From Escherichia coli (GTDB lineage Bacteria; Pseudomonadota; Gammaproteobacteria; Enterobacterales; Enterobacteriaceae), in assembly GCF_016026235.1 (NCBI RefSeq), contig NZ_CP065613.1: a stretch of DNA of 64,000 bases; one strand, 5' to 3'. A program made the position numbers and the translations under genes. Positions 31,290 through 63,107 of this stretch are shown here, piece by piece. The notes below the pieces were generated by a model. That model had not been told where the DNA came from, ran no database searches, and saw nothing but the letters and a program-made list of their open reading frames with translations. Position 1 is the stretch's first letter; the number at the start of each line of letters is the position of its first letter.

Positions 31290-31694
31290 CTATCCTTCCA
31301 GTTGCCCTCCTGCAGCCCCCCTCTCCCTGCTGTATACCCCGGTACCACAACGCGGGCAGCACTTTTCCCCCTCATAATCTTCGTCACACATCACACAAAA
31401 CCACTTTCTCACCTTCACCGTATAATCCGGAACCGTCATGCCCTGCAGATGCAAACGACGGGCCTCTTTCTCTGCCGGGTCAAGCCAGGTGCATCGCAGC
31501 AGGATTTTCGCAGCAACAGTCATCTGGTCATGTTCAAACCACGGCGGTTGTCCGTCATTGCCCCGCTTAAGTGTTAACGGACAACCACAGGACACACAGC
31601 ACAAAACGTCCTGTCGGTTGTTCTTCGCGGCTTCTTTCGCCGTAACAAAATGGCCTTTGCTGTCATTCGCCATATAGCAGTTCAGAATTCGCAT
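31290..31694 (-). CDS. Hypothetical Cys-rich (putative zinc-binding) protein, paralogue A
   Basis: 134-aa ORF with CxxC...PWFEH...WFCxxC...CCPRC arrangement; paralogous to the ORF at 32852-33256. Confidence 0.5.
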   Translation of the reverse strand: MRILNCYMANDSKGHFVTAKEAAKNNRQDVLCCVSCGCPLTLKRGNDGQPPWFEHDQMTVAAKILLRCTWLDPAEKEARRLHLQGMTVPDYTVKVRKWFCVMCDEDYEGEKCCPRCGTGVYSRERGAAGGQLEG

Positions 31695-31879
31695 ATCTCC
31701 TCCTTGTATCTTGACAATTGGTTAAAATAACTGTGATTAGATTTGGCAAGGTGTATGCAGCCCGATCCCTCAAGGGGTTCATAGCCCGTAGCTCAGCGAA
31801 TGGCGCATACACTGAGCCACTCATCAGAAACCCGAACAGTTGTCAGTACGCCATAACGCATTTGCAAGGATGGGTAATC

Positions 31880-32848
<969 letters not shown>

Positions 32849-38905: not shown

Positions 38906-40199
38906 CTGAGGGATCCCCAGAAAATTTAGTAAACCATTATCATATTGGTATACCGTTGCTGTAGAACTTTCAGCCCTGCGTCAAGTGACAGTGTGTTTAG
39001 TATGAGTGGAGAATGTCGAATCACATTCTCCGCCAGTTTTAATAACGAGATGACTCGCCTGTGCTTCACTGTATTTGCCTGATATTTATGATGTATCCCT
39101 TTGTTTTCCAGGCTGAAACCGCTTAACCACATAATGATACTGGCTAATGTTGCGATCAGACTCAATACCGTGACCCGCCCGGATGAATGACTGGCACCAA
39201 ACCGTAATCCAAATCCCCAGCGAGGATTTTTTTCATCCCTGAAATTTTGCTCAATTTGCATTCTACGGCTGTATAATTTCATTACCTGTTTTGGCGAGAA
39301 CTCAGTACTGTTTGTGAAAATAAACCATGGTGATTTCCCGGCAGTACGAGCTTTAGCCGTCACCGATGGTCTGGTTGCTCTTTCCTTCGAGCGTTTAAAT
39401 CAACGACCTTTAGGCTTACTTTTATAAAGATAAAAATGCCCTTCATGTTGTGCATTTTTATCTCGACCCAGCAGGCCTTCACCTAAATAAATTGCTGTCG
39501 TTGATGCTTTTGTGCCTGAGTCCGACACCTTTTCCCAGCCATTACCAACATTGTAATAATGATTGCCCAGTACCCGGCAAATATAGGTCCAGCCACGGGA
39601 GCGGAGCTGTTGGAACCATCGCCCCTGAAAACCGGCATCTGTAATAACAATGACATCAGTCCCGGGGGAAAAGCACTCAGCAAGCGATTCCAGAAAACGC
39701 TCATGTACATCTGCATTCGCTGTCTGTGATGATGGAACGACACAACTCATCAACGGTAAAGAACGCCCGTCACATGCCAGGCTTGCCCGCAAAAGCTGAA
39801 AACGAGAGGCATGATAAGCACTCCAGTCAATGAGTATCACAACACGAGACATTCCCCGCGTAATCTTTTGGGTAATTCGCTGAAAAATGGTGGAAACCTC
39901 ATTTTGCAAATGTCGATTCCCCAACAGTCGATCCACCCGCTTTATTTTGTTTTTAACTGATGCCGTACCGGTTAAATGACGCCCGATACTGGTAAGTGTG
40001 AGGGAAGCGCCATTTATTACAGCATTAGTTGCGTCAATCAGTGATTTTTGACGGTAAAGATGCAAAGGGGCCAGTATGTTGTTAAGGAAATTTTGGCATA
40101 ATGAACGTGCAGGCATAGTGGTGATCTCCTTGAAATTGTTAGCACAATCAATTAGATCACATCTCACTATGCCTGTCTTGTTTTCTGGGGATTCCTCAG
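38906..40199 (-). mobile_element. IS10-like IS4-family insertion sequence inside yeeP
   Basis: Terminal inverted repeats CTGAGGGATCCCCAGAAAA (38906-38924) and CTGAGGAATCCCCAGAAAA (reverse complement of 40181-40199). Flanking direct repeat GGGAGGTCAC at 38896-38905 and 40200-40209. Confidence 0.7.
38926..40116 (-). pseudogene. IS4-family (IS10-like) DDE transposase, in two frames
   Basis: Segments resemble the IS10 transposase (NKIKRVDRLLGNRHL; VIVITDAGFQGRWF; YSRRMQIEQNFRDEKNPRWGFGLRF) but are split between ORFs 39400-40116 and 38926-39363. Confidence 0.7.
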
Positions 40200-41009
40200 G
40201 GGAGGTCACCCCGGTCAGTGATGTTCACGCCGGCACCCGGGAAGTGCGGCGCTTCCGTCTGAGTGGCCACGGTCACAGCATGATTATCACTGACCTGCCC
40301 GGGGTGGGCGAGAGCCGGGACAGGGATGCAGAGTATGAAGCCCTGTACCGTGACATTCTGCCTGAACTTGACCTGGTACTGTGGCTGATTAAAGCCGATG
40401 ACCGTGCCCTGTCTGTGGATGAGTATTTCTGGCGACACATCCTGCACCGGGGACATCAGCAGGTGCTGTTTGTGGTGACGCAGGCCGACAAAACGGAGCC
40501 CTGCCATGAATGGGATATGGCCGGCATTCAGCCTTCTCCCGCACAGGCACAGAACATTCGTGAGAAAACAGATGCGGTATTCCGGCTGTTCCGGCCCGTA
40601 CATCCGGTTGTGGCCGTATCGGCCTGCACCGGCTGGGAACTGGATACGCTGGTCAGTGCGCTCATGACAGCGCTTCCCGACCATGCCGCCAGTCCCCTGA
40701 TGACCCGCCTGCAGGACGAGCTGCGCACGGAATCTGTCCGGTCTCAGGCCCGTGAACAGTTTACCGGTGCGGTGGACCGGATATTTGACACGGCGGAGAG
40801 CGTCTGTATTGCCTCTGTTGCACGCACGGTTCTGCGTGCCGTCCGTGACTCGGTGGTCTCTGTTGCCCGCGCTGTATGGAACTGGATTTTCTTCTGAACA
40901 GTCTGCCAGGGGAAATGCCTGATTACATTGCGTTAACCAACTGAAAACATGATACACCCCCCTCATATCCACCTCTTTCTCTTGCGTGACTGCCTTGCTG
41001 TTAATAGAA

Positions 41010-41060
41010 TAAAACGATCGATAAAACAGGTATCGATCGTTGATATCGATCGTTTATAGT
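41010..41060 (+). promoter_or_regulatory. flu (agn43) phase-variation switch: three GATC Dam sites in the OxyR-binding region
   Basis: GATC at 41016, 41035 and 41048, clustered about 220-250 bp upstream of the flu start codon, as described for the agn43 regulatory region. Confidence 0.6.
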
Positions 41061-43251
41061 GGTTAATGGCCTGCGAAAAGGCAGCTGAATCTCTTCATCA
41101 TGCAGAACGGAATTGCACACAACGGACTGATACTTCTCTGGCGGATGAGAGAGGGGAAGCATTTATGTCCGGGAAAAACCACTTTATCTGACCATGCTGT
41201 TTTGTACCTGCCGGTATCCACATTTGTGGGTACCGGCTTTTTTATTCACCCTCTGTAAGGAAAAGCTGATGAAACGACATCTGAACACCAGCTACAGGCT
41301 GGTATGGAATCACATTACGGGCACCCTGGTGGTGGCTTCCGAACTGGCGCGCTCACGGGGAAAACGCACCGGTGTGGCGGTTGCGCTGTCTCTTGCTGCT
41401 GTCACGTCAGTCCCGGTACTGGCTGCTGACACGGTCGTACAGGCGGGAGAAACCGTGAGCGGCGGAACACTGACAAATCATGACAACCAGATTGTCTTCG
41501 GTACGGCCAACGGAATGACCATCAGTACCGGTCTGGAGTATGGGCCGGATAACGAGGCCAATACCGGCGGACAATGGATACAAAATGGCGGTATCGCCAA
41601 CAACACTACTGTCACCGGTGGTGGTCTTCAGAGAGTGAATGCTGGAGGAAGCGTTTCAGACACGGTTATCAGTGCCGGAGGCGGACAGAGCCTTCAGGGG
41701 CAGGCAGTGAACACCACTCTGAACGGCGGTGAGCAGTGGGTACATGAAGGCGGGATTGCAACGGTTACCGTCATTAATGAGAAGGGCTGGCAGGCCGTCA
41801 AATCCGGCGCAATGGCAACCGACACGGTTGTGAATACCGGCGCGGAAGGGGGACCGGATGCAGAAAATGGTGATACCGGGCAGACCGTCTACGGAGATGC
41901 CGTACGCACCACCATCAATAAAAATGGTCGTCAGATTGTGGCTGCTGAAGGAACGGCAAATACCACTGTGGTTTATGCCGGCGGCGACCAGACTGTACAT
42001 GGTCACGCACTGGATACCACGCTGAATGGGGGGTACCAGTATGTGCACAACGGCGGTACGGCGTCTGGCACTGTTGTAAACAGTGACGGCTGGCAGATTA
42101 TCAAGGAAGGTGGTCTGGCGGATTTCACCACCGTTAACCAGAAAGGCAAACTGCAGGTGAACGCCGGTGGTACCGCCACACATGTCACCCTGAAACAGGG
42201 TGGAGCACTGGTTACCAGTACTGCGGCAACGGTTCTTGGCAGCAACCGTTTGGGCAATTTCACGGTGGAAAACGGTAAGGCTGACGGCGTTGTTCTGGAG
42301 TCCGGCGGTCGCCTAGATGTACTGGAAGGCCATTCAGCGCAGAAAACACGGGTGGATGACGGCGGAACCCTGGCAGTGTCTGCCGGTGGTAAGGCAACAG
42401 GTGTCACCATGACATCCGGTGGTGCCCTGATTGCAGACAGTGGTGCCACTGTTGAGGGGACCAATGCCAGCGGTAAGTTCAGTATTGATGGCATATCCGG
42501 TCAGGCCAGCGGCCTGCTGCTGGAAAATGGCGGCAGCTTTACGGTTAATGCCGGGGGACAGGCCAGCAACACCACTGTCGGACATCGTGGAACACTGATG
42601 CTGGCTGCCGGGGGAAGTCTGAGTGGCAGAACACAGCTCAGTAAAGGCGCCAGCATGGTACTGAATGGTGATGTGGTCAGTACCGGCGATATTGTTAACG
42701 CAGGGGAGATTTACTTTGACAATCAGACAACACCGGATGCCGTACTGAGCCGTGCTGTTGCAAAAGGCAACGCCCCGGTAACGTTCCATAAACTGACAAC
42801 CAGTAACCTCACCGGTCAGGGTGGCACCATCAATATGCGTGTTCGCCTTGATGGCAGCAATGCCTCTGACCAGCTGGTGATTAATGGTGGTCAGGCAACC
42901 GGCAAAACCTGGCTTGCGTTTACAAATGTCGGAAACAGCAACCTCGGGGTGGCAACCACCGGACAGGGTATCCGGGTTGTGGATGCACAGAATGGCGCCA
43001 CCACAGAAGAAGGTGCGTTTGCCCTGAGTCGCCCGCTTCAGGCCGGCGCCTTTAACTACACCCTGAACCGTGACAGCGATGAAGACTGGTACCTGCGCAG
43101 TGAAAATGCTTATCGTGCTGAAGTCCCCCTGTATACATCCATGTTGACACAGGCAATGGACTATGATGCGTATTACCGTGAAGGAGATCGGTGAGTAACA
43201 TCGATGGAGATCGGTTCGTGTCACTTTCACAGAACCGTTTTTAAATTACCT

Positions 43252-44001
43252 TCACTGATCTCCTTCGGTCAACGGAGATTGTATTTTCCGCATTGATTCT
43301 CCTTTAAGTTCAATCTTGATACTGCCATGAACCAGTCGATCTAGGATGGCATCCGCATGTGTGGAGTCTCCGATCATTTTGTACCAGTTTTCCACCGGCA
43401 ACTGGCTCACTACGATGATTGAGCCTCGTTGGTACATCAGATCCACTATTTCCAGCAGGTCGCTACGCTGTTCTGATGAGAGAGGTTCCAGCCCCCAGTC
43501 ATCCAGAAGCAGCAGATCGCTATTATTCAGCCTAGTCAAAAGTTTGCTGTATCTTCCATCAGCATGCCCCTGATAGCACTGTTCCATCAGCGCTTTAAGG
43601 CGATAATAGTAGACCTTGTATCCCTGTCGGCAGGCATTATGACCAAGTGCACATGCCAGGAACGTTTTACCGCTGCCGGTGGCCCCGGTCAGTAAAATAT
43701 TTTGTTTCAGGGTTAACCAGTTTCCCTGACTGAGTGAACGGATGAGGGCCCTGTCCAGCCCTCTATTGTTACGATAATCCAGCTTTGATAACTCAGCATT
43801 AAGTCTGAACCGTGCATGTTTGATCAGACGCTCTGCCTTCCTGTTTTCACGGCAGGTTAGTTCTTCTGCTGTCAGTAATGACAGGCGTTCTTCGAAGCCC
43901 AGCTCCTGGTATGTGCCCGGCTGAGCAAGTTGCTTTTTAAGCGCATCACGGAAGCCGGTGAGTTTAAGTGCGGTCAGTTGTTCGTAAAGATGATTCATCA
44001 T
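43252..44001 (-). CDS. istB: IS21-family helper ATPase IstB
   Basis: Walker A GATGSGKT; 249 aa. Confidence 0.8.
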   Translation of the reverse strand: MMNHLYEQLTALKLTGFRDALKKQLAQPGTYQELGFEERLSLLTAEELTCRENRKAERLIKHARFRLNAELSKLDYRNNRGLDRALIRSLSQGNWLTLKQNILLTGATGSGKTFLACALGHNACRQGYKVYYYRLKALMEQCYQGHADGRYSKLLTRLNNSDLLLLDDWGLEPLSSEQRSDLLEIVDLMYQRGSIIVVSQLPVENWYKMIGDSTHADAILDRLVHGSIKIELKGESMRKIQSPLTEGDQ

Positions 44002-44012
44002 TGGATCCCGTA

Positions 44013-45533
44013 TCAGTGGTAATACTCACTGCCGCGTACGTTTTCGTGTTCCATCGTGGATAACAGATCTGGTTTTGGATCCTGAACAGGTTGTTTATCC
44101 AGACCTTTTTCCAGGATCGATTTAATACCTGACAGACGCCATACCTTTGTTTTCAGAGCTCTTGCACATGCTGCATTAAGTCTGGCTTTACTGTATTTTT
44201 TATGAAGGTTCAGGAGTCCAAGGCAGAAGCGATAGCTTTGTTCCGGATGTGGACGAGAGTTCAGTATATGAAGCACATAACTATGAGTTTCACTGCCTAT
44301 GTGCCCCGCCCATTCCAGAAGACGCTCTGGCGTCCAGGTGGCATGCTGTCGATGAGCTTCAGGCATGTGCTCGTTGCGGGTACTGTAGCCATAAGTACGC
44401 TTGCGCGGGTGCACAGCAACCTCCTGCCCCTGATTGAAGAGTCTTACCAGTTCTCCGGAGATCCATGCTTCCAGTTGCTGGCCTAACAGCGAACATGGAA
44501 CCGAGTAGTAATGTTTGTCGATTTCCACGTGGTAATCGGCATGAACTCTGACTTTCTTCACCAGGGTGTAACTGTAACTGGCTTCAGGAAGAGGCTTCAG
44601 TGCGGGTTTATCAAGCTGGATGAAGAGTTCTGCACGTGAATAACCCAACTTCTGCATTATTTTGTTATTCAGTCTTTCCAGCAACTCCCGAATGCGCTGA
44701 TTAAGCGATGCAAGGCTGTAGAAGATCTCATGCCTGATTCGGGCCATGATCCAGCGTTCAACAACCTGAACGCCAACTTCAGCTTTGGCTTTATCTTTCG
44801 GTTTACGTGGCCGCGCAGGCAAAACTGCGACATTATAATGCTCAAGCATCTGCTGGTAGGTAGGGTTAACGTCAGGATCATACTTACATGCCCTGGATGT
44901 GGCGCTTTTCAGATTGTCCGGAACAACAAGTTCAGGAACGCCACCCAACCACTGGAAGCAGCGAACATGACTCATCACCCAGTCTTCAAGCTGCTGAGAC
45001 CAGGTGGCCTCTGCCCATGTGTAACTTGATGCCCCGAGAACAGCTACGATGACCTGAGCAGTTCTTATTTCTCCGGTCTCAGGGTCGGTAACGCCAACGG
45101 TAGGTCCACAGTAATCAACGAAAAGTTTTTCGCCAGCTTTATGTACCTGACGCATTGATGGTGAAGTGGTTTTGAGCCATTCACGGTACATCCGGCAGTA
45201 ATGGTTATAGCTGTAAAAACCGCCTGGATTACGCTCACAGTATTCTTCCCAGAGTAGCTGCAGCGTCACGCATTTATTACGCAGTTCCCAGTGTACTGTA
45301 GCCCAGTCAGGCAGAGAGTGCTTCTTCATCTTAACCTGGGTCTGAAGGAACGCATGTTTTAGTTTTGTATCATCCCATCCTGTAGGTAAGGGCCACTGCT
45401 TTATGCCAAGTTGAGCCGCCCGATTAGCATATCTGGATACAACGGAAGGGGAGATTGCAAGACTACGACCAATTTGTCGATGGCTGAGTCCAACACCGTA
45501 TTTAAGCCTAAGAATTTCTTTAAGTTTTCTCAT
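44013..45533 (-). CDS. istA: IS21-family transposase IstA
   Basis: HTH plus DDE domain; about 50% similar to the IstA of copy 1. Confidence 0.8.
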   Translation of the reverse strand: MRKLKEILRLKYGVGLSHRQIGRSLAISPSVVSRYANRAAQLGIKQWPLPTGWDDTKLKHAFLQTQVKMKKHSLPDWATVHWELRNKCVTLQLLWEEYCERNPGGFYSYNHYCRMYREWLKTTSPSMRQVHKAGEKLFVDYCGPTVGVTDPETGEIRTAQVIVAVLGASSYTWAEATWSQQLEDWVMSHVRCFQWLGGVPELVVPDNLKSATSRACKYDPDVNPTYQQMLEHYNVAVLPARPRKPKDKAKAEVGVQVVERWIMARIRHEIFYSLASLNQRIRELLERLNNKIMQKLGYSRAELFIQLDKPALKPLPEASYSYTLVKKVRVHADYHVEIDKHYYSVPCSLLGQQLEAWISGELVRLFNQGQEVAVHPRKRTYGYSTRNEHMPEAHRQHATWTPERLLEWAGHIGSETHSYVLHILNSRPHPEQSYRFCLGLLNLHKKYSKARLNAACARALKTKVWRLSGIKSILEKGLDKQPVQDPKPDLLSTMEHENVRGSEYYH

Positions 45534-46724
45534 AGAAATTGGAACTGTTGGCATAGGTATCCTTTACCGGAATGGCAAAAGATACAGATCAACACACCTG
45601 TGAAGTTCCAATAACATTGATGGAGATCACTGAATAACAAAATGAGTCAAAAGTGATCTCCATCGATGTTATTCAGCGATCTGTTCAAATGTTATTACCC
45701 GATCTCGATGGAAGTTATTGAGTGATCTCCTTTCATGAAAATACGCACTATGACCGGATTCTGGCAGGCTCCCGCAGCCATCAGACCGGTGTAAACGGTG
45801 AAAATAACAGCGTCCGTCTCAGCATTCAGGGCGGTCATCTCGGTCACGATAACAACGGCGGTATTGCCCGTGGAGCCACGCCGGAAAGCAGCGGCAGCTA
45901 TGGCTTCGTCCGTCTGGAGGGTGACCTGCTGAGAACAGAGGTTGCCGGTATGTCTCTGACGACAGGGGTGTATGGTGCCGCAGGCCATTCTTCCGTTGAT
46001 GTTAAGGATGATGACGGTTCCCGCGCCGGCACGGTCCGGGATGATGCCGGCAGCCTGGGCGGATACCTGAATCTGACACACACGTCCTCCGGCCTGTGGG
46101 CTGACATTGTGGCACAGGGAACCCGCCACAGCATGAAAGCGTCATCGGACAATAACGACTTCCGCGCCCGGGGCTGGGGCTGGCTGGGCTCACTGGAAAC
46201 CGGTCTGCCCTTCAGTATCACTGACAACCTGATGCTGGAGCCACAACTGCAGTACACCTGGCAGGGGCTCTCCCTGGATGACGGCCAGGATAACGCCGGT
46301 TATGTGAAGTTCGGGCATGGCAGTACACAACATGTGCGTGCCGGTTTCCGTCTGGGCAGCCACAACGATATGACCTTTGGTGAAGGCACCTCATCCCGTG
46401 ACACCCTGCGCGACAGTACAAAACACGGTGTGAGTGAACTGCCTGTGAACTGGTGGGTACAGCCTTCTGTTATCCGCACTTTCAGCTCCCGGGGTGACAT
46501 GAGCATGGGTACAGCCGCCGCCGGCAGTAACATGACGTTCTCACCGTCCCGGAATGGCACGTCACTGGACCTGCAGGCCGGACTGGAAGCCCGTGTCCGG
46601 GAAAATATCACCCTGGGCGTTCAGGCCGGTTATGCCCACAGCGTCAGCGGCAGCAGCGCTGAAGGTTATAACGGTCAGGCCACGCTGAATGTGACTTTCT
46701 GATAATCAGGTCACTCTCCTTCAG

Positions 46725-46751
46725 GCCCCGGTCATCATGACCGGGGCTTTT
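46725..46751 (+). terminator. Terminator after flu
   Basis: Hairpin ccccggtcatcatgaccgggg followed by cttttt. Confidence 0.45.
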
Positions 46752-47085
46752 TACTTTCAGGGAGCAACAGATATGCCGGGTTGTACATCACGTTTATTGC
46801 CCGAAGGCCCTTTCTCACGCGAACAGGCTGTTGCCGTCAAAACAGCTTACCGCAATGTGTTTACTGAAGATGACTAGGGAACATATTCCCGGCTGGTTAT
46901 CCGTAATGCTGAAGGTCAGTTGCGCTGGTGATGCCGGAACACAGCTTAATACTCAGCTCGCCAGTTAAGGGCTTCTCAGACAATAAACGTCATTCATTTC
47001 ATCTGTCAGGCCGCGTCTTCTCCGGGAGACGTGGCTTTTTCATTTATTACACCAGTAAATCTTAACCACCGATAAGGAGCAAATT

Positions 47086-47904
47086 ATGCGACTAGCCAGT
47101 CGTTTTGGTTATACGAACCAGATACGCCGTGACCGTCCGCTGACACACGAAGAACTGATGCACTATGTTCCCAGTATTTTCGGTGAAGACCGGCATACTT
47201 CCCGCAGTAAACGATATGCGTACATTCCCACCATCACCGTACTGGAAAGCCTGCAGCGGGAAGGCTTTCAGCCATTCTTCGCCTGCCAGACCCGTGTGCG
47301 CGACCCGGGCCGCCGGGGATACACAAAACATATGCTGCGTCTGCGGCGGGCCGGAGAGATAAACGGAGAACATGTCCCTGAAATCATTCTGCTCAACTCC
47401 CATGACGGTACCTCCAGCTACCAGATGCTGCCGGGTTACTTCAGGTTCGTCTGTCAGAACGGATGCGTCTGTGGTCAGTCTCTGGGGGAAGTGCGTGTTC
47501 CGCACCGGGGAAATGTGGTGGAGAAAGTTATCGAAGGGGCTTACGAGGTGGTGGGCGTGTTTGACCGGATAGAGGAGAAGCGTGATGCCATGCAGTCGCT
47601 GGTCCTGCCGCCACCGGCACGCCAGGCGCTGGCACAGGCGGCACTGACTTACCGTTATGGTGACGAACATCAGCCCGTCACCACCGCCGACATTCTGACG
47701 CCACGACGCCGGGAGGATTACGGTAAGGACCTGTGGAGTGCTTATCAGACCATCCAGGAGAATATGCTGAAAGGCGGGATTTCCGGTCGCAGTGCAAAAG
47801 GAAAACGTATCCATACCCGGGCCATTCACAGCATTGATACCGACATTAAGCTCAATCGCGCATTGTGGGTGATGGCAGAAACGATGCTGGAGAGCCTGCG
47901 CTGA
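47086..47904 (+). CDS. DUF932-family protein (YfjQ/YafZ-like)
   Basis: 272-aa product MRLASRFGYTNQIRRDRPLTHEELMHYVPSIFGEDRHTSRS...; recognised from memory as the CP4-type DUF932 family. Confidence 0.65.
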   Translation: MRLASRFGYTNQIRRDRPLTHEELMHYVPSIFGEDRHTSRSKRYAYIPTITVLESLQREGFQPFFACQTRVRDPGRRGYTKHMLRLRRAGEINGEHVPEIILLNSHDGTSSYQMLPGYFRFVCQNGCVCGQSLGEVRVPHRGNVVEKVIEGAYEVVGVFDRIEEKRDAMQSLVLPPPARQALAQAALTYRYGDEHQPVTTADILTPRRREDYGKDLWSAYQTIQENMLKGGISGRSAKGKRIHTRAIHSIDTDIKLNRALWVMAETMLESLR

Positions 47905-47985
47905 TGCCGTTTCCCTGAGTGAGGGAATCATTCAGCTTTCGTTCCTGAAAAACACACATTTATTTGTTATTTAAGGAGTTATCTC

Positions 47986-48465
47986 ATGAAAAGCGTTTCT
48001 CAGAATACCCCCACAATTTATTCAGCTACAACACCAGAGAATAATCCGCCTCAGTTTGTTGCCAGCCTCGTCCCTGATGAACAGCGCATCAGCTTCTGGC
48101 CGCAGCACTTTGGCCTCATTCCACAGTGGGTGACCCTGGAGCCCCGTGTCTTCGGCTGGATGGACCGTCTGTGCGAAGACTACTGCGGTGGTATCTGGAA
48201 TCTGTACACCCTGAACAACGGCGGGGCATTTATGGCACCCGAACCGGATGACGATGATGACGAAACATGGGTACTGTTCAATGCCATGAACGGTAACCGC
48301 GCTGAAATGAGCCCGGAAGCCGCCGGTATTGCCGCCTGTCTGATGACGTACAGTCATCATGCCTGTCGTATGGAGAATTATGCCATGACGGTCCATTATT
48401 ACCGGTTGCGGGATTACGCCCTGCAGCATCCGGAATGCAGCGCCATTATGCGCATCATCGACTGA
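47986..48465 (+). CDS. Antirestriction protein (KlcA/ArdB-like, YfjX/YafX family)
   Basis: 159-aa acidic protein (…APEPDDDDDETWVLFNAMNG…) in the position and of the size typical for CP4 antirestriction proteins. Confidence 0.6.
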   Translation: MKSVSQNTPTIYSATTPENNPPQFVASLVPDEQRISFWPQHFGLIPQWVTLEPRVFGWMDRLCEDYCGGIWNLYTLNNGGAFMAPEPDDDDDETWVLFNAMNGNRAEMSPEAAGIAACLMTYSHHACRMENYAMTVHYYRLRDYALQHPECSAIMRIID

Positions 48466-48480
48466 ATGGAGAGAAGCACA

Positions 48481-48957
48481 ATGCAACAACTTTCCTTTCT
48501 GCCCGGAGAGATGACGCCCGGCGAGCGCAGCCTCATTCAACGGGCCCTGAAAACCCTGGACCGCCATCTTCATGAACCCGGCGTGGCCTTCACCTCCACC
48601 CGGGCGGCACGGGAATGGCTGATTCTGAACATGGCGGGACTGGAGCGTGAAGAGTTCCGGGTGCTGTATCTGAACAACCAGAATCAGCTGATTGCCGGTG
48701 AAACCCTCTTCACCGGCACCATCAACCGCACGGAAGTCCATCCCCGGGAAGTGATTAAACGCGCCCTGTACCACAATGCCGCTGCCGTGGTACTGGCACA
48801 CAATCACCCGTCCGGTGAAGTCACACCCAGTAAGGCAGACCGGCTTATCACCGAACGTCTGGTACAGGCACTGGGCCTGGTGGATATCCGGGTGCCGGAC
48901 CATCTGATAGTCGGTGGCAACCAGGTTTTCTCCTTTGCCGAACATGGTCTGCTTTAA
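48481..48957 (+). CDS. yeeS: RadC-like JAB-domain protein
   Basis: JAMM-like motif HNHPSGEVTPSKAD and RadC-family layout. Confidence 0.75.
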   Translation: MQQLSFLPGEMTPGERSLIQRALKTLDRHLHEPGVAFTSTRAAREWLILNMAGLEREEFRVLYLNNQNQLIAGETLFTGTINRTEVHPREVIKRALYHNAAAVVLAHNHPSGEVTPSKADRLITERLVQALGLVDIRVPDHLIVGGNQVFSFAEHGLL

Positions 48958-49019
48958 CCCGTCACAACCACATCACACCTGTTTTCACTTTTATCTTCTG
49001 TCTTCAGAGGTATCCCATT

Positions 49020-49241
49020 ATGAAAATTATCACCCGTGGTGAAGCCATGCGTATTCACCAACAACATCCGACATCCCGTCTTTTTCCGTTCTGTACCGGC
49101 AAATACCGCTGGCACGGCAGTGCTGAAGCGTATACCGGTCGTGAAGTGCAGGATATTCCCGGTGTGCTGGCCGTGTTTGCAGAACGCCGTAAGGACAGTT
49201 TTGGTCCGTATGTCCGGCTGATGAGCGTCACCCTGAACTGA
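49020..49241 (+). CDS. yeeT: DUF987 protein YeeT
   Basis: 73-aa product MKIITRGEAMRIHQQHPTSRLFPFCTGKYRWHG...; recognised as YeeT. Confidence 0.8.
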   Translation: MKIITRGEAMRIHQQHPTSRLFPFCTGKYRWHGSAEAYTGREVQDIPGVLAVFAERRKDSFGPYVRLMSVTLN

Positions 49242-49403
49242 TGTTCCGTCACCCGGAAAACGAGTACGACTGGCTGAGCTCAGACGCCGCTGTGGATGAG
49301 GTCCTGCTCATCAACGAATACACCTTTACCGAAGCCGGTCTGCGCGCCGGCTGACCCGTCATCGTTAAACTATCATTCACCGATTTTCTGTGAGGATTTT
49401 ATC

Positions 49404-49772
49404 GTGTCAGACACACTTTCCGGGACAACGCATCCCGATGACAATGACGACCATCCCTGGTGGGGACTACCCTGCACAGTGACGCCCTGTTTCGGCGCCC
49501 GTCTGGTGCAGGAGGGTAACCGGTTGCATTACCTTGCCGACCGTGCCGGTATCAGAGGCCGGTTCAGAGATGCGGATGCGTACCCTCTGGACCAGGCCTT
49601 TCCGCTGCTGATGAAACAACTGAAATTAATGCTCACCAGTGGTGAACTGAATCCCCGCCATCAGCATACCGTGACACTGTATGCGAAGGGGCTGACCTGT
49701 GAAGCCGACACCCTCGGCTCCTGTGGTTACGTTTATCTGGCTGTTTATCCGACACCTGAAACGAAAAAGTAA
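49404..49772 (+). CDS. cbeA: Type IV antitoxin CbeA (YeeU)
   Basis: 122-aa product with GTG start (VSDTLSGTTHPDDNDDHPWWGLPCTVTPCFGARLVQEGNRLHYLADRAG...). Confidence 0.85.
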   Translation: MSDTLSGTTHPDDNDDHPWWGLPCTVTPCFGARLVQEGNRLHYLADRAGIRGRFRDADAYPLDQAFPLLMKQLKLMLTSGELNPRHQHTVTLYAKGLTCEADTLGSCGYVYLAVYPTPETKK

Positions 49773-49861
49773 ACCACCAGAATAACCTTCTGCTCCGGCC
49801 TGGTGTTTTCACCACGCCACTGTCCCATTTTTTATCTCTGCATATCAGGAAAATCTTCAGT

Positions 49862-50239
49862 ATGAAAACATTACCCGACACGCATGTACGGGAGGTATCG
49901 TGCTGCCCGTCTCTCGTCACCATCTGGCAGACACTGCTCACCCGACTGCTGGACCAGCACTACGGCCTTACGCTGAATGACACACCGTTCGCTGATGAAC
50001 GTGTGATTGAACAGCATATTGAGGCAGGCATTTCACTGTGTGACGCGGTGAACTTTCTCGTTGTAAAATACGCGCTGGTACGTACCGACCAGTCGGGATT
50101 CAGCGCCTGTACCCACTCTCAGTTAATAAACAGCATCGATATCCTCCGAGCTCGCCGGGCAACAGGCCTGATGACCCGCGACAATTACAGAACGGTAAAT
50201 AACATTACCCTGGGGAAGCATCCGGAGGCGAAACGATGA
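49862..50239 (+). CDS. cbtA: Type IV toxin CbtA (YeeV), cytoskeleton-targeting
   Basis: 125-aa product MKTLPDTHVREVSCCPSLVTIWQTLLTRLLDQHYGLTLNDTPF... Confidence 0.85.
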   Translation: MKTLPDTHVREVSCCPSLVTIWQTLLTRLLDQHYGLTLNDTPFADERVIEQHIEAGISLCDAVNFLVVKYALVRTDQSGFSACTHSQLINSIDILRARRATGLMTRDNYRTVNNITLGKHPEAKR

Positions 50240-50439
50240 AACTGGCCCTGACGCTGGAAGCCGACAGCGTTAACGTGCAGGCGCTGAACATGGGGCGCAT
50301 TGTCGTTGACGTCGATGGTGTTAATCTCGCTGAACTGATTAACAAGGTCGCTGAAAACGGTGATTCACTCCGCGTGGTGGATGAACGTGACTCTACCGAA
50401 ACACCGGCAACTTATGCCAGCCCTCACCAGTTGCTGTAA
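50236..50439 (+). CDS. yeeW: Small CP4-type protein YeeW
   Basis: 67-aa ORF overlapping the cbtA stop by 4 nt (ATGA). Confidence 0.7.
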   Translation: MKLALTLEADSVNVQALNMGRIVVDVDGVNLAELINKVAENGDSLRVVDERDSTETPATYASPHQLL

Positions 50440-50713
50440 GACAATGCAGTGATACAGGGTATAGTGCCATTAACCACAGAAACAGCACTGTTGTCCTGTA
50501 TTAAGCAGGCAAGAGAAGATGTCCTTACCCTGCGCCATCTGCAGCTTCTGCACCAGAACCAGTGAATCTCACTCAACAGGCTTCATTTCCCCTGACGCCA
50601 GCCTGAATACAGCTGGCGTTTTCATTTATAAACAGAAAGGAAAACCGATAATAATGGAATGGACGCCCCTACCATGAAGCAACGGTAGGATATTACTGAT
50701 AAACCTTCCAGTG

Positions 50714-51752
50714 GAGGTGCGTTATGGCCGTTTTAACGATTAGCATTGACCTGACAAAAAATGAATTCCAAATCCACGGTCTGGGTAGGAACAGAAAAAT
50801 CTAAGCTCAGAAAACGGATTAAACGTTCCCTGATGCCCGTATTCTTCGCGAATATGTCTTCCTGTCGGATTGGGATGGAGGTCTGCGCCGGAGCGCGTCA
50901 TTAGTGAGAATGCTGTCTACTTAGGGGCATAATGTCAGACTAATGCCCGCGATTTGTAAAGCCATATGTGAAAACAAACAAGAATGATATGGCTGCTGCC
51001 GAGGCCATCTGTGAAGCCGTTACCCGACCTAATATGCGGTTTGTCAGCATCAAGACGCCTGAGCAGTAGTCATTACTGTCTTTTCATCGTGCCCAAACGG
51101 GATTTGTTAAATCAAGGACTGCGCAGATAAACCAGATCAGAGGATTACTGGCTGAATTTGGCATCGTTCTCCCGCCCGACATTGTAGCATTCAGTCGTCA
51201 TGTCCCTGCCCTGCTTGAAGACGCGGAAAACTGTTTAACAATGCCGTTCAGACAGCTGTCGTCCTATCTCTAATGAAAATGTGTAACAACTGAGCGTACA
51301 CATTGAAACCATAGAAGCCGTGAGCAACGAACACGTCGGGAACGACGAACTGTGCAGGAAAATTGCCACCATTTCGGGGATTGCTATTCTTACCACCACT
51401 GCAATTGTCAGCACCGGGTAGTATCGGCTTCAAAAACCGGCGTCAGCTTGCTGCATGGCTTGGACTGGTTCCCCGACAGTGCTTCAGCGTAGGTAAAAAC
51501 ACGCTGGGGTCTATCAGTAAACAGGACGATGTCTATATCAGAACGCTACTGTTCCATGGTGCGAAGACAGTGTCAAACGCCAGAAAGGGCAGACAGGTCC
51601 AGGAAAGTTGGCTGGGCAGACCAGTCTCGCGGCGGAATAAAAATGTTGCCACCGTAGCGCTGAACAACAAAAATGCCAGAGTGCTCTGGGTATTGCTAAC
51701 CAACGATAAAGAGATTTCACCAGAAGAAGTGATGGTAGCTGCATATATGTAA
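50714..51752 (+). pseudogene. Degraded IS110-family transposase (yoeD-like remnant)
   Basis: N-terminal stub MAVLTISIDLTKNEFQIHGLG and C-terminal segment ...RQLAAWLGLVPRQCFSVGKNTLGSISKQDDVYIRTLLFHGAKTV..., separated by frameshifts and stops. Confidence 0.6.
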
Positions 51753-52189
51753 ATGAAACTACTTCTGTCTGTTGAAAAATAAAACCAACCTACTGATTGC
51801 TAAGGATAAACAAGTATTAAAGGCCAGACTGATAAGACCGCGACTAAGTGAACCTGTATCTGACATTGCATAGCTTCGCTAATGTGTCAATCATGATTAG
51901 GACTAAATCTGTGAATTCCTTTAGGAAGCACGGACACAGGCCAATCTGAGTCCATATGTATGATTGGAATCTTACACAGATGACTTTTTGACACGGGGAC
52001 TTGGCAAACAGGGGCGACCATGTATGTCAGATATGACAATCTCACTTCCGAAAGAAGTCAACGGGCACGTTATCTGTTCAACCAGAATCCGACACATTCT
52101 GGCTATACGAAAGAGCATACTTATGCAAATCTATATGCTTTTCCGGCAACAAGCAGGAATCTCAGCGCTGAGGCAGGAATTAGAGGTAA

Positions 52190-52389
52190 AAACGCCCTAC
52201 CGGGCCATGAATCACCCGGTCATTGGAGTAGTAACCAAAGCAGATTTAGCCAGCATGGAACACATATCTTTGGTGAAATGTTGGTTACGGGAAGCTGGAG
52301 CGCACAACGTGTTAGTAACCAGTGCGGTTAATAACAATGGAGTTACAGAACTTTTTGCCTTGCTGCATACAGAAGAAGGCTGTTGCTAA
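52190..52389 (+). pseudogene. Remnant resembling the C-terminus of a EutP/PduV-type GTPase (yoeF-like)
   Basis: Translation PVIGVVTKADLASMEHISLVKCWLREAGAHNVLVTSAVNNNGVTELFAL; no intact N-terminal part. Confidence 0.35.
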
Positions 52390-52489
52390 TTTCGATAGGT
52401 TCTCAGATGAGAATGATGACGGTGATACACAGATAAGAATCAATGAGCAATGAGGGTTGCCGGGCAACCCTCATTGAATAAAACAGGAA

Positions 52490-52819
52490 TTACTTCGCTT
52501 CGCCGTTTTTCATTTCGCCCATAGCTTTCAGCTTTTTGGAGATATCGCGGCGTTCTTTGGAGAGCTCGGCATTTTTGATGATGTAATCGTCAACGCGATC
52601 TTCATAGTCACCTTTCATGCTGGCGATGATGCCCTGGATTGCTTCAACGCTCATCCCGGGCTTGATGTAATCGCTCAGGTTGTCCAGCAACAGGACGCGC
52701 TTCTGGTTGTCACGGATCTTTTTCTCAACGTCCTGAATTTCACGTTGCAGTTTGTTCTTACGACGGAACAGACGAACAAATTCCAGTACGTCCTGGAATG
52801 AAGGCTTGGTAGTTTCCAT
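52490..52819 (-). CDS. yeeX: UPF0265 / DUF496 protein
   Basis: 109-aa product [30 protein letters not shown]... Confidence 0.85.
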
Positions 52820-52990
52820 TTTTATACCCCTGATAATGTGAGAGTCGGATTCGTTTAAGCAACCGCTATTCGTTAGGGCCAACATTACTCATAGCTGCCG
52901 CAGATGACAATGCTTTTATCCCTTTTCACTATCATACCCTTTATCCTTGCTGAATCGAAGCAGCAGCAAGATGATTCTGAAGTTCAGGAA

Positions 52991-54049
52991 TTATTTGCGC
53001 AAGGCCCGGCAAATCAGACTCGATAGCAACTCAAGCTGATGTGCCGTTTCCATGTTCAGCCACACATAACCATAGATTGGTGTTTCCACAACCTTCAGGT
53101 CATGGTGGTTATTCAGCAACTGACGCAGCTCTTCCACAGCATCGTTCAATTTTTCCGTATTGGCAAAAACCGGCTGCGGATTACCTTCGTACAGCGCATG
53201 AACAAGGCTCAGCAGTATTTGCTGCATCATGTGCTGGGTATCACGAAGTTTTTGCGCGTTCAATAACACGAAATGGCTGGGGCGCGTGGCCCAGTATGCA
53301 TTGATTTGCAACTCCAGCATACAAACCAGATTGCGGTTAATGGTCTGGATACCTTCATATATCGATTTTGGAATACGAGTTTCTTTGCTGGCGGGCGCAA
53401 TCAGCCCACGCATTTTCACGGCATCGGTCAGGAGTTTTTGTAGATGGCTTTCCAGACGTGGGCGTTCGAGTAAGTTCGGTGAGAATGCAGATTGATAAAC
53501 CCGATTATACTCGGTCAGACTTTTCGCCAGTTGAATGCGCCAGTGGATGAACGCCCGTTGTGGCCAGATACCGGTAAACAACATTGCCAGTAAAGAGCCG
53601 AGGATCACATCGCCGCTTCGCCATAACGCCGTATCAATTTCACCTGTCGGGGAACCCACAACAATTGCCAGCGTCACCCCAATCAATAATCCTTGATACG
53701 GTTTCTTGCCCAGCGCCAGCCAACCGCAAAGAAACATAGCCGCCGCGCACCAGACTAACATCAGCGGTAACGAAATTAACTCCAGTTGCAGAGCGATAAG
53801 ACCTAAAATCGAACCCAACACCGTACCGCCAATACGTTCGAAGGCGCGAGGGACAACGTTACCCCAGAACGAGATTGGCCCCATAATCACCACCATGGTG
53901 ACCAGCGGCCAGGTGCTTTCCGGGATAGTAAACAGGCGGATAATGAGAAAAGTGAGCAGGAATGCCAGCGCGACCCGAGTACCATGCACAATGCGGTAAT
54001 GGCGGTATACCCGGATTTCAAACGGGCTTAATGACTTATCGGCACGCAC
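52991..54049 (-). CDS. yeeA: Inner-membrane protein YeeA (FUSC-like)
   Basis: 352-aa protein with an N-terminal membrane domain. Confidence 0.85.
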   Translation of the reverse strand: MRADKSLSPFEIRVYRHYRIVHGTRVALAFLLTFLIIRLFTIPESTWPLVTMVVIMGPISFWGNVVPRAFERIGGTVLGSILGLIALQLELISLPLMLVWCAAAMFLCGWLALGKKPYQGLLIGVTLAIVVGSPTGEIDTALWRSGDVILGSLLAMLFTGIWPQRAFIHWRIQLAKSLTEYNRVYQSAFSPNLLERPRLESHLQKLLTDAVKMRGLIAPASKETRIPKSIYEGIQTINRNLVCMLELQINAYWATRPSHFVLLNAQKLRDTQHMMQQILLSLVHALYEGNPQPVFANTEKLNDAVEELRQLLNNHHDLKVVETPIYGYVWLNMETAHQLELLSSLICRALRK

Positions 54050-54246
54050 GCAGAAACTCCGTAATGAAGATTAAAAGCGCTCATAACACATCTGTCGGCC
54101 AGAAGGCGCGCCTCTGAGTTATCCGACGGACATACCGGGAACAGTGTAATTTCCCGGCAGGAGCGAAAAATTTGAAAGGCGCATCTTACTCTTTTCGCTT
54201 TCAAAAAAAGAGTGGTCTTCGCGTCAACACACCGCCCTGAGATGAA

Positions 54247-54720
54247 TTAGTGATGTTTTGGCTGCACCGCAACATACATTTCGATATCCCAGTACCCATC
54301 TTCCGCGCCATTGTTCAAGTAAACCTCGAAGCAGGGCTTTGGTAACATTTCATAAGCACTGTCCTGCAAGAGGCTATTAAAGAACTGATACCAGGGTTTA
54401 GCAAAATCATCACCGACTACACGAGCTACCGCCACCGCATACTGACCACCTGAAATTTCTGTCAGAATGACGCCCTCACTGTTTTCGGGAAGCGTAAAGT
54501 AACCCGGCACCGTCACGACGGTGTCGCAGCGTAATTTTTCGGCGGGTGTTTCATCTGGATTGTCGTAATAGATAGCAACCCACTCCTTCGGCACAATATT
54601 TTTACTATCTACCCACATCATCAACTGCTCAAAACCTTTCTTTACCGTCTGTTCCCACGGGCCAACGAGATGGAAACCTGCAACGGTACGTTTATCTTCC
54701 TGCTTAATCTCGTAGTTCAT
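54247..54720 (-). CDS. sbmC: DNA gyrase inhibitor SbmC (GyrI)
   Basis: 157-aa product [26 protein letters not shown]... Confidence 0.9.
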
Positions 54721-54838
54721 GACGCCTCCATTAATACTGTTTTTATATACAGTATAGTTGCAAAATTAAAACCACAAGGAATGAGTGTTGATTATGCGAG
54801 CAGACTCGCACTCCTGCCAGTCTGCTGCAAAAGAAAGG

Positions 54839-56011
54839 TCAGGCCTTATGGTGGAAATAATCACTCAGGCGGGAAAACATGCCGCCTTCCCCGACAGATT
54901 CCAGGGTAACCAGCGGCCAGTGCGCCACCTGTTTATCACGGTCGTAAAGTTCAATTTCCCCTACCCGCTGATGGGCGCTAATTGGCGCGGTGAGCTCTTT
55001 ACCATCAAGGGTATATTTGGCTTTGATATGTGGAATTTCGGCTTTCGGTAGCACCATCCAGAACTCTTGTTCCGTTCCCAGGTCGATATTTTCTTTATCG
55101 CCATACCAGATGCGTTCCGTTCCGACCTTTTTCCCACGGCGCAAAATTTGCACCGTAGTAAAGTTTTGTTGCCCCCAACGTAGTAATTTTCTTGCCTCTT
55201 CCTCACGACCTTTTGCACTGTCAGCCCCCATTACCACTGCAATGAGACGACGCTGCCCATCTACAGCCGAAGCAATGAGATTAAACCCGGCACCAGAAGT
55301 ATGACCCGTTTTCAGGCCGTCAACATTCATGGTTTTATCCCACAACAACCCGTTACGGTTTTGCTGGGTGATACCGTTCCAGGTGAGGCTTTTCTCACTG
55401 TACATATGATAAAACTCGGGCTCGCCGTGGATGATAGCGCGAGAAAGCACAGCTAAATCATAAGCCAAGCTATGCTGGCCAGGTGCATCCAGACCATGCA
55501 CTGTTTCAAAATGCGTATCCTTGAGATGCAGCTTCTCGGCATAGTTGTTCATCATTTCAACAAACTGCCGTTGCCCACCGGCAATATAGTCAGCCAGTGC
55601 AACACAAGCGTCATTTCCGGAATCCACAATTAAACCACGGCTTAAATCACGTACCGATACGCGATCGCCCTCTTTCAAAAACATCAGTGAAGAACCGACA
55701 AACACCGGATTATCTTTCGCCCACGCATCGCGCCCCACGGTGACAATATCGTCTGGCGTAATGCGATGACTATCGATAGCGCGATCCACGACATAGCCCG
55801 TCATCAGCTTTGTCAGGCTGGCGGGATTGCGCTGTTGATGCTCATTACCCGCGGTGAGAATCTGACCGGTGGTGTAATCCATCAATACCCAGGACCCGGC
55901 ATGAATCTCTGGAGGCTGAGGTGAAAAAGGAATGTTTTCCGCCGCAAAACCAGACGATAAATTAAAAACGAACAAAGAAGCAGCAATAATAAGACGGCGT
56001 TTCAACAGCAA
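54839..56011 (-). CDS. dacD: D-alanyl-D-alanine carboxypeptidase (PBP6b)
   Basis: Signal peptide plus serine-peptidase S11 motifs (SLTK, SGN, KTG). Confidence 0.9.
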   Translation of the reverse strand: MLLKRRLIIAASLFVFNLSSGFAAENIPFSPQPPEIHAGSWVLMDYTTGQILTAGNEHQQRNPASLTKLMTGYVVDRAIDSHRITPDDIVTVGRDAWAKDNPVFVGSSLMFLKEGDRVSVRDLSRGLIVDSGNDACVALADYIAGGQRQFVEMMNNYAEKLHLKDTHFETVHGLDAPGQHSLAYDLAVLSRAIIHGEPEFYHMYSEKSLTWNGITQQNRNGLLWDKTMNVDGLKTGHTSGAGFNLIASAVDGQRRLIAVVMGADSAKGREEEARKLLRWGQQNFTTVQILRRGKKVGTERIWYGDKENIDLGTEQEFWMVLPKAEIPHIKAKYTLDGKELTAPISAHQRVGEIELYDRDKQVAHWPLVTLESVGEGGMFSRLSDYFHHKA

Positions 56012-56213
56012 ACCCTCAGGTGTTTCAAATAGCTGTTCTTTTTACGGAAATACTTATGAACTGGCTGGAATAAAGTGCAAGAAAATGTGACTACTATCTC
56101 ATTTTTATCTGACATGATCTGTTGCCACTCGCTGCCAAATTGTCGCGCTAAAGCTGATTAGCACGGTGATATTTGATACTCTGGCAGACAGCAGAAATAA
56201 CGGATTTAACCTA

Positions 56214-57641
56214 ATGATGAATGACGGTAAGCAACAATCTACCTTTTTGTTTCACGATTACGAAACCTTTGGAACGCACCCCGCGTTAGATCGCCCTGCA
56301 CAGTTCGCAGCCATTCGCACTGATAACGAATTCAATGTCATCGGCGAACCCGAAGTCTTTTACTGCAAGCCCGCGGATGACTATTTACCCCAGCCTGGAG
56401 CAGTATTAATTACCGGTATTACCCCGCAGGAGGCACGGGCGAAAGGAGAAAACGAAGCCGCGTTTGCCGCCCGTATTCACTCGCTTTTTACCGTACCGAA
56501 GACCTGTATTCTGGGCTACAACAATGTGCGTTTCGACGACGAAGTCACACGCAACGTTTTTTATCGTAATTTCTACGATCCTTACGCCTGGAGCTGGCAG
56601 CATGATAACTCGCGCTGGGATTTACTGGATGTTATGCGTGCCTGTTATGCCCTGCGCCCGGAAGGAATAAACTGGCCTGAAAATGATGACGGTCTACCGA
56701 GCTTTCGCCTTGAGCATTTAACCAAAGCGAATGGCATTGAACATAGCAACGCCCACGATGCGATGGCTGATGTGTACGCCACTATTGCGATGGCGAAACT
56801 GGTAAAAACGCGTCAGCCACGCCTGTTTGATTATCTCTTTACCCATCGTAATAAACACAAACTGATGGCGTTGATTGATGTTCCGCAGATGAAACCCCTG
56901 GTTCACGTTTCCGGAATGTTTGGGGCATGGCGCGGCAATACCAGCTGGGTGGCACCGCTGGCGTGGCATCCTGAAAATCGCAATGCCGTAATTATGGTGG
57001 ATTTGGCAGGAGACATTTCGCCATTACTGGAGCTGGATAGCGACACATTGCGCGAGCGTTTATATACCGCAAAAGCCGATCTTGGCGATAACGCCGCCGT
57101 TCCGGTTAAGCTGGTGCATATCAATAAATGTCCGGTACTGGCCCAGGCGAATACGCTACGCCCGGAAGATGCCGACCGACTGGGAATTAATCGTCAGCAT
57201 TGCCTCGATAACCTAAAAATTCTGCGTGAAAATCCGCAAGTGCGTGAAAAAGTGGTGGCGATATTCGCGGAAGCCGAACCGTTTACGCCTTCAGATAACG
57301 TGGATGCACAGCTTTATAATGGCTTTTTCAGTGACGCCGATCGTGCAGCAATGAAAATTGTGCTGGAAACCGAGCCGCGTAATTTACCGGCACTGGATAT
57401 CACTTTTGTTGATAAACGAATTGAAAAACTGTTGTTCAATTATCGAGCGCGCAACTTCCCGGGGACGCTGGATTATGCCGAGCAGCAACGCTGGCTGGAG
57501 CACCGCCGCCAGGTCTTCACGCCAGAGTTTTTGCAGGTCTACGCTGATGAATTGCAGATGCTGGCACAACAGTATGCCGATGACAAAGAGAAAGTGGCGC
57601 TGTTAAAAGCGCTTTGGCAGTACGCGGAAGAGATCGTCTGA
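56214..57641 (+). CDS. sbcB: Exodeoxyribonuclease I
   Basis: 475-aa product from MMNDGKQQSTFLFHDYETFGTHPALDRPAQFAAIR (DnaQ-like exonuclease motif). Confidence 0.9.
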   Translation: MMNDGKQQSTFLFHDYETFGTHPALDRPAQFAAIRTDNEFNVIGEPEVFYCKPADDYLPQPGAVLITGITPQEARAKGENEAAFAARIHSLFTVPKTCILGYNNVRFDDEVTRNVFYRNFYDPYAWSWQHDNSRWDLLDVMRACYALRPEGINWPENDDGLPSFRLEHLTKANGIEHSNAHDAMADVYATIAMAKLVKTRQPRLFDYLFTHRNKHKLMALIDVPQMKPLVHVSGMFGAWRGNTSWVAPLAWHPENRNAVIMVDLAGDISPLLELDSDTLRERLYTAKADLGDNAAVPVKLVHINKCPVLAQANTLRPEDADRLGINRQHCLDNLKILRENPQVREKVVAIFAEAEPFTPSDNVDAQLYNGFFSDADRAAMKIVLETEPRNLPALDITFVDKRIEKLLFNYRARNFPGTLDYAEQQRWLEHRRQVFTPEFLQVYADELQMLAQQYADDKEKVALLKALWQYAEEIV

Positions 57642-57644
57642 AAC

Positions 57645-57677
57645 AAAAAAGCCGGAGCGACAAACTCCGGCTTTTTG
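57645..57677. terminator. Bidirectional terminator between convergent sbcB and plaP
   Basis: Hairpin aaaaaagccggagcgacaaactccggcttttt; a second hairpin accggatgattatgtcatccggt follows at 57684-57706. Confidence 0.5.
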
Positions 57678-57714
57678 AGATTTACCGGATGATTATGTCA
57701 TCCGGTTTGTAAGA

Positions 57715-63102: not shown

Positions 63103-63107
63103 TCGCC

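Follow-up and report, generated by a model that had tools for sequence, protein, structure and literature searches.

The antigen 43 gene flu of an Escherichia coli CP4-44-like island is split by ISEc12 below a retained Dam/OxyR switch sequence

The antigen 43 (Ag43) gene flu (agn43), as found in a 64,000-nucleotide stretch of Escherichia coli DNA (contig NZ_CP065613.1 of RefSeq assembly GCF_016026235.1; the whole stretch is hereafter called the window), is split in two by a complete copy of ISEc12, an insertion sequence (IS) of the IS21 family; this flu copy is a member of the Ag43/Cah autotransporters by descent and is now a pseudogene. From the whole of the evidence, we consider it very probable that this is the flu gene of a CP4-44-like island at the K-12 place, in an E. 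coli lineage of NCTC type, and that it was recently inactivated by simple transposition of ISEc12. An earlier note on this DNA, made from the sequence alone, had described an IS21-family insertion of 2.58 kb splitting Ag43 at MDYD/RIL, CTATGA repeats denoting a simple insertion, and three GATC sites matching the known Dam/OxyR switch, whose sequence would still be present upstream of the inactivated gene; all of this was borne out, and the coordinates of the GATC sites were exact. Feature coordinates are collected in Table 1.

The flu open reading frame (ORF) begins with an ATG (MKRHLNTSYRL...) and is native up to ...LTQAMDYD, after which eight foreign codons follow; the ORF as called (from 41194 or 41269 to 43194) covers the 5′ part of flu together with this IS-encoded tail. 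To the right of the IS the flu frame is picked up again with RILAGSRSHQ... and runs to a stop at 46700-46702. When the two parts are joined, they form an uninterrupted ORF of 2,847 nucleotides, encoding 948 amino acids; the third base of codon 633 now comes from the IS, with GAT replacing GAC (Asp either way). Against the NCBIfam equivalog model for Ag43/Cah (NF033177; 948 positions, cut-off 1,200 bits), the 5′ fragment scored 1212.8 bits (profile positions 1-634) and the 3′ fragment 759 bits (positions 630-948), the two of them tiling the entire model. Furthermore, the Pfam domains of the rejoined protein were those of a type Va architecture, with ESPR at residues 6-48, AIDA repeats at 100-455, AC_1 at 497-599 and Autotransporter at 673-924. 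The single ORF by which an Ag43/Cah gene is recognized is missing, the gene being split after codon 633 by 2,581 base pairs (bp), with a stop eight codons into the IS.

The break after Asp633 falls in the linker, with AC_1 on one side and the β-barrel on the other, and by alignment its counterpart in K-12 Flu is residues D724/R725. The α/β processing site of K-12 (D551/P552) aligns to a gap in the shorter allele of the window; by inspection, from the flanking VLNG motif, we estimate that the processing site of the window allele lies near residue 465, on which estimate the IS would sit within the β43-equivalent part rather than at the α/β boundary. This estimate refines the earlier description of passenger and translocator as the two parts separated by the IS.

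Among intact relatives, the closest that we found belongs to E. coli E275a; its Ag43/Cah gene (WP_159382627.1, of the same 948-amino-acid NF033177 class) and the rejoined gene differ at 13 of 2,847 nucleotides and 2 of 948 amino acids. As neither half of flu has decayed, the rejoined ORF is intact and its distance from E275a is this small, the insertion is evolutionarily recent. The regulatory region of E275a is also the same as in the window; its gene, in contrast, is intact and lies in another island, between fec and fim, and that island has an ISEc12 between its yeeU-like and cbtA-like genes. The exact intact 948-amino-acid ancestor was absent from the collection of 15 billion proteins searched.

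The element within flu, which lies antisense to the gene, matches copies annotated as 'IS21-like element ISEc12' with 100% coverage and 99.9% identity, being 4-5 nucleotides away from the other copies compared, and both IstA and IstB are intact. IstB is identical to the common protein WP_001016257.1, as encoded in one of the loci fetched for comparison (L002, see below). The ends of the element read TGCGTATT.../...AATACGCA, with TG...CA termini and the same initial eight nucleotides at both ends; subterminal repeats with 23-nucleotide spacing occur twice at the istB end (43172-43223) and three times at the istA end (45611-45728), and would fit, as expected, the transposase-binding sites of the IS21 family. 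Both ORFs and both ends of the element are intact. Of 5,426 complete E. coli genomes, 1,365 contain ISEc12, at a median of 3 places each; the window has no second copy. As a separate observation, IstA of the window carries Trp at residue 89, where the commonest ISEc12 IstA (WP_001298859.1) carries Arg, and this is the sole difference between the two proteins.

The IS entered at CTATGA in codons 631-633, doubling those six base pairs, and its flanks are collinear with the intact E275a gene. Other ISEc12 copies are bordered by duplications of 5-7 bp, as is the copy in tssM of E. coli sequence type 131 (ST131), with 5 bp (PMC10711316); the 6-bp CTATGA is thus what a simple insertion would be expected to leave, and it lies inside the 4-8 bp by which the IS21 family is recognized.

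As to the fate of the product, transcription in ON cells would begin at GATC-I, and part of it would terminate as the leader RNA IsrC, whereas the remaining transcripts would extend along flu and on into the IS, where they would be antisense to istB and istA. Translation initiated at the flu start codon would yield 633 native and 8 IS-encoded residues (641 amino acids); this product would keep its signal peptide, the adhesive passenger in full and the autochaperone domain, and would lack the β-barrel. An autotransporter passenger without its barrel cannot cross the outer membrane. As general autotransporter biology predicts, the product would be exported by Sec to the periplasm, would be neither translocated through the outer membrane nor displayed, and would probably be degraded; the secreted-domain-only product suggested in the earlier note is unlikely on the same grounds. 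The barrel fragment would be inert, having neither a native start codon nor a signal peptide. Over it, gene callers place an ORF of 326 amino acids starting with GTG (45722-46702), whose start lies inside the IS end and which lacks a signal peptide. Expression of the barrel fragment from an IS-borne promoter was considered and dropped, because a consensus scan of the IS end found no promoter-like site, that is, no sigma-70 match, facing it.

This flu copy is a null for surface display of Ag43. The term 'knocked out', used in the earlier note, is right for the locus in the window; as a claim about the whole cell it goes too far, agn43 paralogues being common in E. coli. Indeed, complete E. coli genomes have a median of 2 places, and up to 36, matching the region that contains flu, and Ag43/Cah genes occur in several CP4-44-like islands, the intact allele of E275a being in a different island from that of the window. 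These counts tell against an Ag43-negative cell; the cell may still aggregate by means of a second intact agn43 paralogue outside the window. By tblastn, however, no second Ag43-like gene was present within the 64-kb window, and we regard it as possible, if rather unlikely, that an intact agn43/cah paralogue elsewhere supplies the function that this locus has lost.

The disruption of flu by ISEc12 has counterparts in other strains. Junction queries found ISEc12 joined to Ag43/Cah genes at other offsets, in either orientation, in many complete genomes, and at least ~45 complete genomes carry it inside an Ag43/Cah gene, at many positions. We fetched 21 loci (L001, L002, L014-L022, L026-L035) and mapped both junctions onto the rejoined 2,847-nucleotide flu gene, in whose nucleotides the sites are numbered. 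Five sites, including that of the window, were used in both orientations, within 0-2 bp, in unrelated strains (sites A to E in Table 1). If insertions were placed uniformly, the probability of five such coincidences between orientations, to within 2 bp, would be ~8e-5 for the verified set and 2.6e-3 when the same test takes all events estimated from alignment spans. In-place inversion of one ancestral insertion was rejected as a source of these pairs, since the partner duplications differ in length and the strains are unrelated.

Cryo-electron microscopy of IS21 has described a transpososome of C2 symmetry whose IstB picks out deformable DNA, and kink-prone hot spots have been proposed (PMC11208146); such symmetric, deformability-based selection would account for the reuse of a site in two orientations without a strong motif. 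Moreover, the locus contains TATGAC only twice, and ISEc12 has inserted at each of the two, at one in the window and at the other, 2513-2519, in NCTC9112. Three points must be set against the existence of hot spots: the verified set is biased, as the junctions fetched first were chosen as seemingly coincident; the argument draws on 22 base-pair-verified junctions together with offsets taken from alignment spans; and no convincing common motif was found around 13 distinct ISEc12 target sites, save TATGAC and the related ACATGAG. A scan of genome contigs for ISEc12 ends gave three short matches, too few for a target logo. On balance, and with these reservations, we lean towards the view that ISEc12 has precise, orientation-independent insertion hot spots in Ag43/Cah loci, at least five in number, with that of the window among them; the insertion point in flu would most likely have been set by the target preference of ISEc12 itself.

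The position and the recurrence of ISEc12 in Ag43 genes could also reflect selection for loss of the adhesin (e.g., through immune evasion or less aggregation) and not target preference. The many genomes with a disrupted gene, and the many positions involved, are consistent with this, as is strain PF9285, which additionally lacks GATC-III in a way that resembles decay after inactivation. For selection, however, any position would serve, and the base-pair coincidence at five sites in opposite orientations, with the probabilities given above, is left unexplained; in addition, one hot spot (site E) lies downstream of the flu stop and spares the gene. Consequently, selection in place of target preference seems unlikely to us, and since the two are not mutually exclusive, selection for Ag43 loss may add to a pattern made by hot spots. 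In the literature searched, we found neither a description of ISEc12 in Ag43 nor a study of ISEc12 target preference.

Two further observations concern these loci. In two of the fetched loci (L019, 7487-7536; L029, 7486-7541), a solitary ISEc12-like remnant of ~57 bp, corresponding to the istA-side end, follows the complete ISEc12 at a distance of 180-450 bp downstream; the window lacks it. Site E falls in the 5′ end of the DUF905 gene, which in the window (46774-46878, downstream of flu) is shortened by an in-frame stop; several related islands have it truncated too, with an annotation as frameshifted.

Upstream of the broken gene, the arrangement GATC-N15-GATC-N9-GATC is unique within the 64-kb window and absent from all 100 dinucleotide-preserving shuffles, and its spacing of 19/13 nucleotides is identical to that of K-12. 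The hexamer TAGAAT, also as in K-12, stands five nucleotides upstream of GATC-I, to whose G the annotated start of K-12 isrC aligns. The leader scored 76.7 bits with Rfam RF00124 (IS102/IsrC; gathering score 46) over the full model (1-206), and lies at the position equivalent to that at which K-12 annotates isrC; its hairpin (41210-41237) is nearly invariant in the alignment of the window, K-12 and E275a. Relative to both K-12 MG1655 and E275a, the ribosome-binding region and the flu start codon are kept, and the whole upstream region is a nearly exact match to E275a. Across 18 other Ag43/Cah loci the switch region is likewise kept, except for the trinucleotide at 41042-41044, GATC-III in PF9285, and the spacer between GATC-I and GATC-II, which is divergent in K-12.

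It has been reported that OxyR represses agn43 where the GATCs carry no methylation and that Dam methylation blocks OxyR (PMC3764049, PMC4872104). In the window, the presumed OxyR site, spanned by the three GATCs, would begin at the transcription start. Judged by its sequence, the cis part of the switch appears intact. Competition between Dam and OxyR should thus still set heritable ON and OFF states from the untouched control region; these states would now govern only the IsrC leader RNA and the read-through transcripts antisense to istB and istA, so that the switch appears to retain one intact output, IsrC, though the coding gene is broken.

Some points must be set against this reading. A consensus scan showed no full sigma-70 promoter upstream of flu, the -35 being weak; the dam and oxyR genes lie outside the 64-kb window; and the trinucleotide between GATC-II and GATC-III reads GAT in the window versus TAT in K-12 and TCT in E275a, that is, 1 and 2 nucleotides off, respectively. 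A switch that is present in sequence and nonfunctional, for instance through altered OxyR affinity, would find its support in this last difference. However, the same trinucleotide is GCT, GTT, TCT, ACC, ACT or TAT in other loci, and GCT, TCT, ACC and TAT stand upstream of genes annotated as intact; as it varies freely among intact alleles too, a functional effect is unlikely. Furthermore, K-12 shares with the window the GATC triad as well as its spacing, the -10 hexamer and, in the distal leader, the terminator hairpin, the ribosome-binding site and the start codon, and we hold a dead switch to be very unlikely.

Two details of the switch region may be recorded apart from this. The three-nucleotide patch at 41042-41044 is hypervariable within a region that is otherwise invariant among CP4-44-type alleles (loci L001-L022). 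In the ISEc12-disrupted allele of PF9285 (L014), the lost GATC-III reads GATT; the window retains all three sites.

With respect to its chromosomal place, the island is flanked on the left by yeeJ, shiA, amn, yeeN, yeeO, cbl, nac, erfK and cobUST and on the right by yeeX, yeeA, dacD and sbcB, so that its position is that of prophage CP4-44 in K-12. Over 13.9 kb, contig UGFA01000005.1 of GCA_900449985.1 shows 100% identity with the window. The 641-amino-acid product, including the IS-encoded tail, has the protein record STM86411.1 ('putative antigen 43 precursor [Escherichia coli]'), and nine contigs are reported to carry it. Seven independent NCBI assemblies cross the left junction, one on a 412-kb contig covering the entire IS and six on short-read contigs. 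An assembly artefact, considered in the earlier note, in which a repeat that is multicopy in many genomes and inside which short-read contigs break was mis-joined into flu, is effectively refuted by these independent assemblies and by the perfect 6-bp duplication at both junctions of a hexamer that is single-copy in the intact allele. Among complete RefSeq E. coli genomes, neither junction was present in one piece, and the allele marks a small lineage.

The system that most resembles the window is flu/agn43 of K-12 MG1655 (b2000, in CP4-44). The two share the neighbourhood from cobU to yeeX/yeeA/sbcB, the order of a yeeP-like GTPase gene, isrC and flu, and the elements of the control region described above, namely the GATC triad with its spacing, the -10 hexamer, the leader terminator and the ribosome-binding region. 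They differ in that K-12 Flu has 1,039 amino acids versus 948 for the allele of the window, to which it is 82% identical and whose passenger is shorter, and in that flu is intact in K-12, whereas ISEc12 splits it in the window. The disruption of tssM by ISEc12 in E. coli ST131 clade C offers another parallel, since there, too, ISEc12 inactivates a gene for surface machinery by simple insertion with a short duplication (ACTGC), and the insertion is inherited as a lineage marker (PMC10711316). In contrast, that case concerns another target gene and goes back to one ancestral event that became fixed in a large clone, whereas the flu junction of the window is known from only nine contigs and 0 complete genomes. 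Compared with IS21, the paradigm for IstA and IstB, the element has the same istA-istB layout, TG...CA ends, subterminal repeats and short, variable duplications; ISEc12 is a different member of the family.

All the components involved are catalogued, that is, the Ag43/Cah autotransporter, the Dam/OxyR switch with IsrC, and ISEc12, and gene disruption by IS is routine; the specific junction is lineage-restricted, undescribed in the literature searched, and already contained in public assemblies. The finding is real, the earlier reading of it was correct, and what it describes is an ordinary adhesin pseudogene made by an IS. The junction can be used as a lineage marker, and it calls for caution where Ag43 status is scored by detection of the passenger or the promoter alone. 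Moreover, with a switch that outlives its protein-coding output, this strain offers a natural test for any role that the switch may have beyond Ag43. The reuse of sites to the base pair by ISEc12, in both orientations and in unrelated strains, suggests that mutation is biased towards loss of Ag43 and provides a natural data set on target choice in the IS21 family. If the hot spots are true, ISEc12 would be a recurrent mutational off-switch for a phase-variable adhesin in unrelated E. coli lineages, and the sites would be evidence from natural populations for the symmetric, structure-based target selection that has been proposed for the IstB of the IS21 family.

Table 1. Features of the interrupted flu locus, sites of recurrent ISEc12 insertion and neighbouring elements. 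Positions are those of the window; for sites A to E they are nucleotides of the rejoined flu gene. Target-site duplications of sites A to E are in brackets.
Feature	Position	Strand	Remarks
-10-like hexamer TAGAAT, flu/agn43 promoter (putative role)	41005..41010	+	same in K-12 MG1655 and E275a
Flu leader RNA (IsrC small RNA, Rfam IS102)	41014..41250	+	RF00124
Three GATC sites, Dam/OxyR phase-switch region	41016..41051	+	sites at 41016, 41035 and 41048
Leader terminator hairpin and T-tract	41210..41245	+	12 pairs, 8 of them G-C, then TTTTTTATT
flu, 5′ part	41269..43166	+	codons 1-633: extended signal peptide, AIDA-repeat passenger, autochaperone domain, start of linker
Target-site duplication CTATGA, left copy	43161..43166	.	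single in the intact E275a allele
IS-encoded tail of the truncated Ag43 ORF	43167..43194	+	AYYREGDR, then TGA stop (43192-43194)
ISEc12 (IS21 family), complete	43167..45747	-	2,581 bp; antisense to flu
istB, AAA+ helper ATPase	43252..44001	-	249 amino acids; NCBIfam NF038214, 270 bits (cut-off 200)
istA, DDE transposase	44013..45554	-	513 amino acids; NCBIfam NF033546, 310 bits (cut-off 160)
Target-site duplication CTATGA, right copy	45748..45753	.	
flu, 3′ part	45754..46702	+	codons 634-948 and stop: remaining linker, β-barrel translocator
flu intrinsic terminator	46723..46749	+	12-pair stem, 8 of the pairs G-C, then T-run
Insertion site C	1576		window orientation: 2024CK-00475 (TGTTC); opposite: CUVET16-819 (same upstream junction)
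Insertion site A	1893-1899		window orientation: window (CTATGA); opposite: PF9285 (CTATGAC) and O25b:H4 (GGCAATG), the latter 8 bp upstream
Insertion site B	2068-2073		window orientation: N18-04097 (ACCTG); opposite: MS 200-1 (GACCTG)
Insertion site D	2818-2825		window orientation: muskdeer13-4 (GGTCAG); opposite: S10EC (GTCAGGC)
Insertion site E	2945-2950		~100 nucleotides beyond the stop; window orientation: GN03449 (CCCGA) and 20-16 (CTTTCT, 10 bp further); opposite: 20-20 (CCCGAA)
IS110-family transposase	19662-20798		
ISL3-like and IS21-like fragments	25686-27145		
IS2	27479-28384		
Second, different IS21-family element	28519-30937		with istA and istB
Frameshifted IS110-family gene	31718-32848		

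Beyond the interrupted gene, the flanks of the island (1-25000 and 46703-64000) reach no more than 98.6-98.9% identity with the best-matching of the 5,426 complete E. coli genomes, the lineage being poorly represented among finished genomes. A Shigella origin, suspected on account of this distance, was dropped, as the deposited 641-amino-acid protein carries the label E. coli. The stretch from 19662 to 32848, upstream of the island, is dense in IS, as detailed in Table 1. Just upstream of flu, an IS4-family element of ~1.29 kb (38907-40199), with its transposase in two ORFs of 269 and 145 amino acids and flanked by an 11-bp duplication (GGGAGGTCACC), splits the yeeP-like GTPase gene; this insertion is probably shared with the sister assemblies, whose short-read contigs start inside it or at its end.

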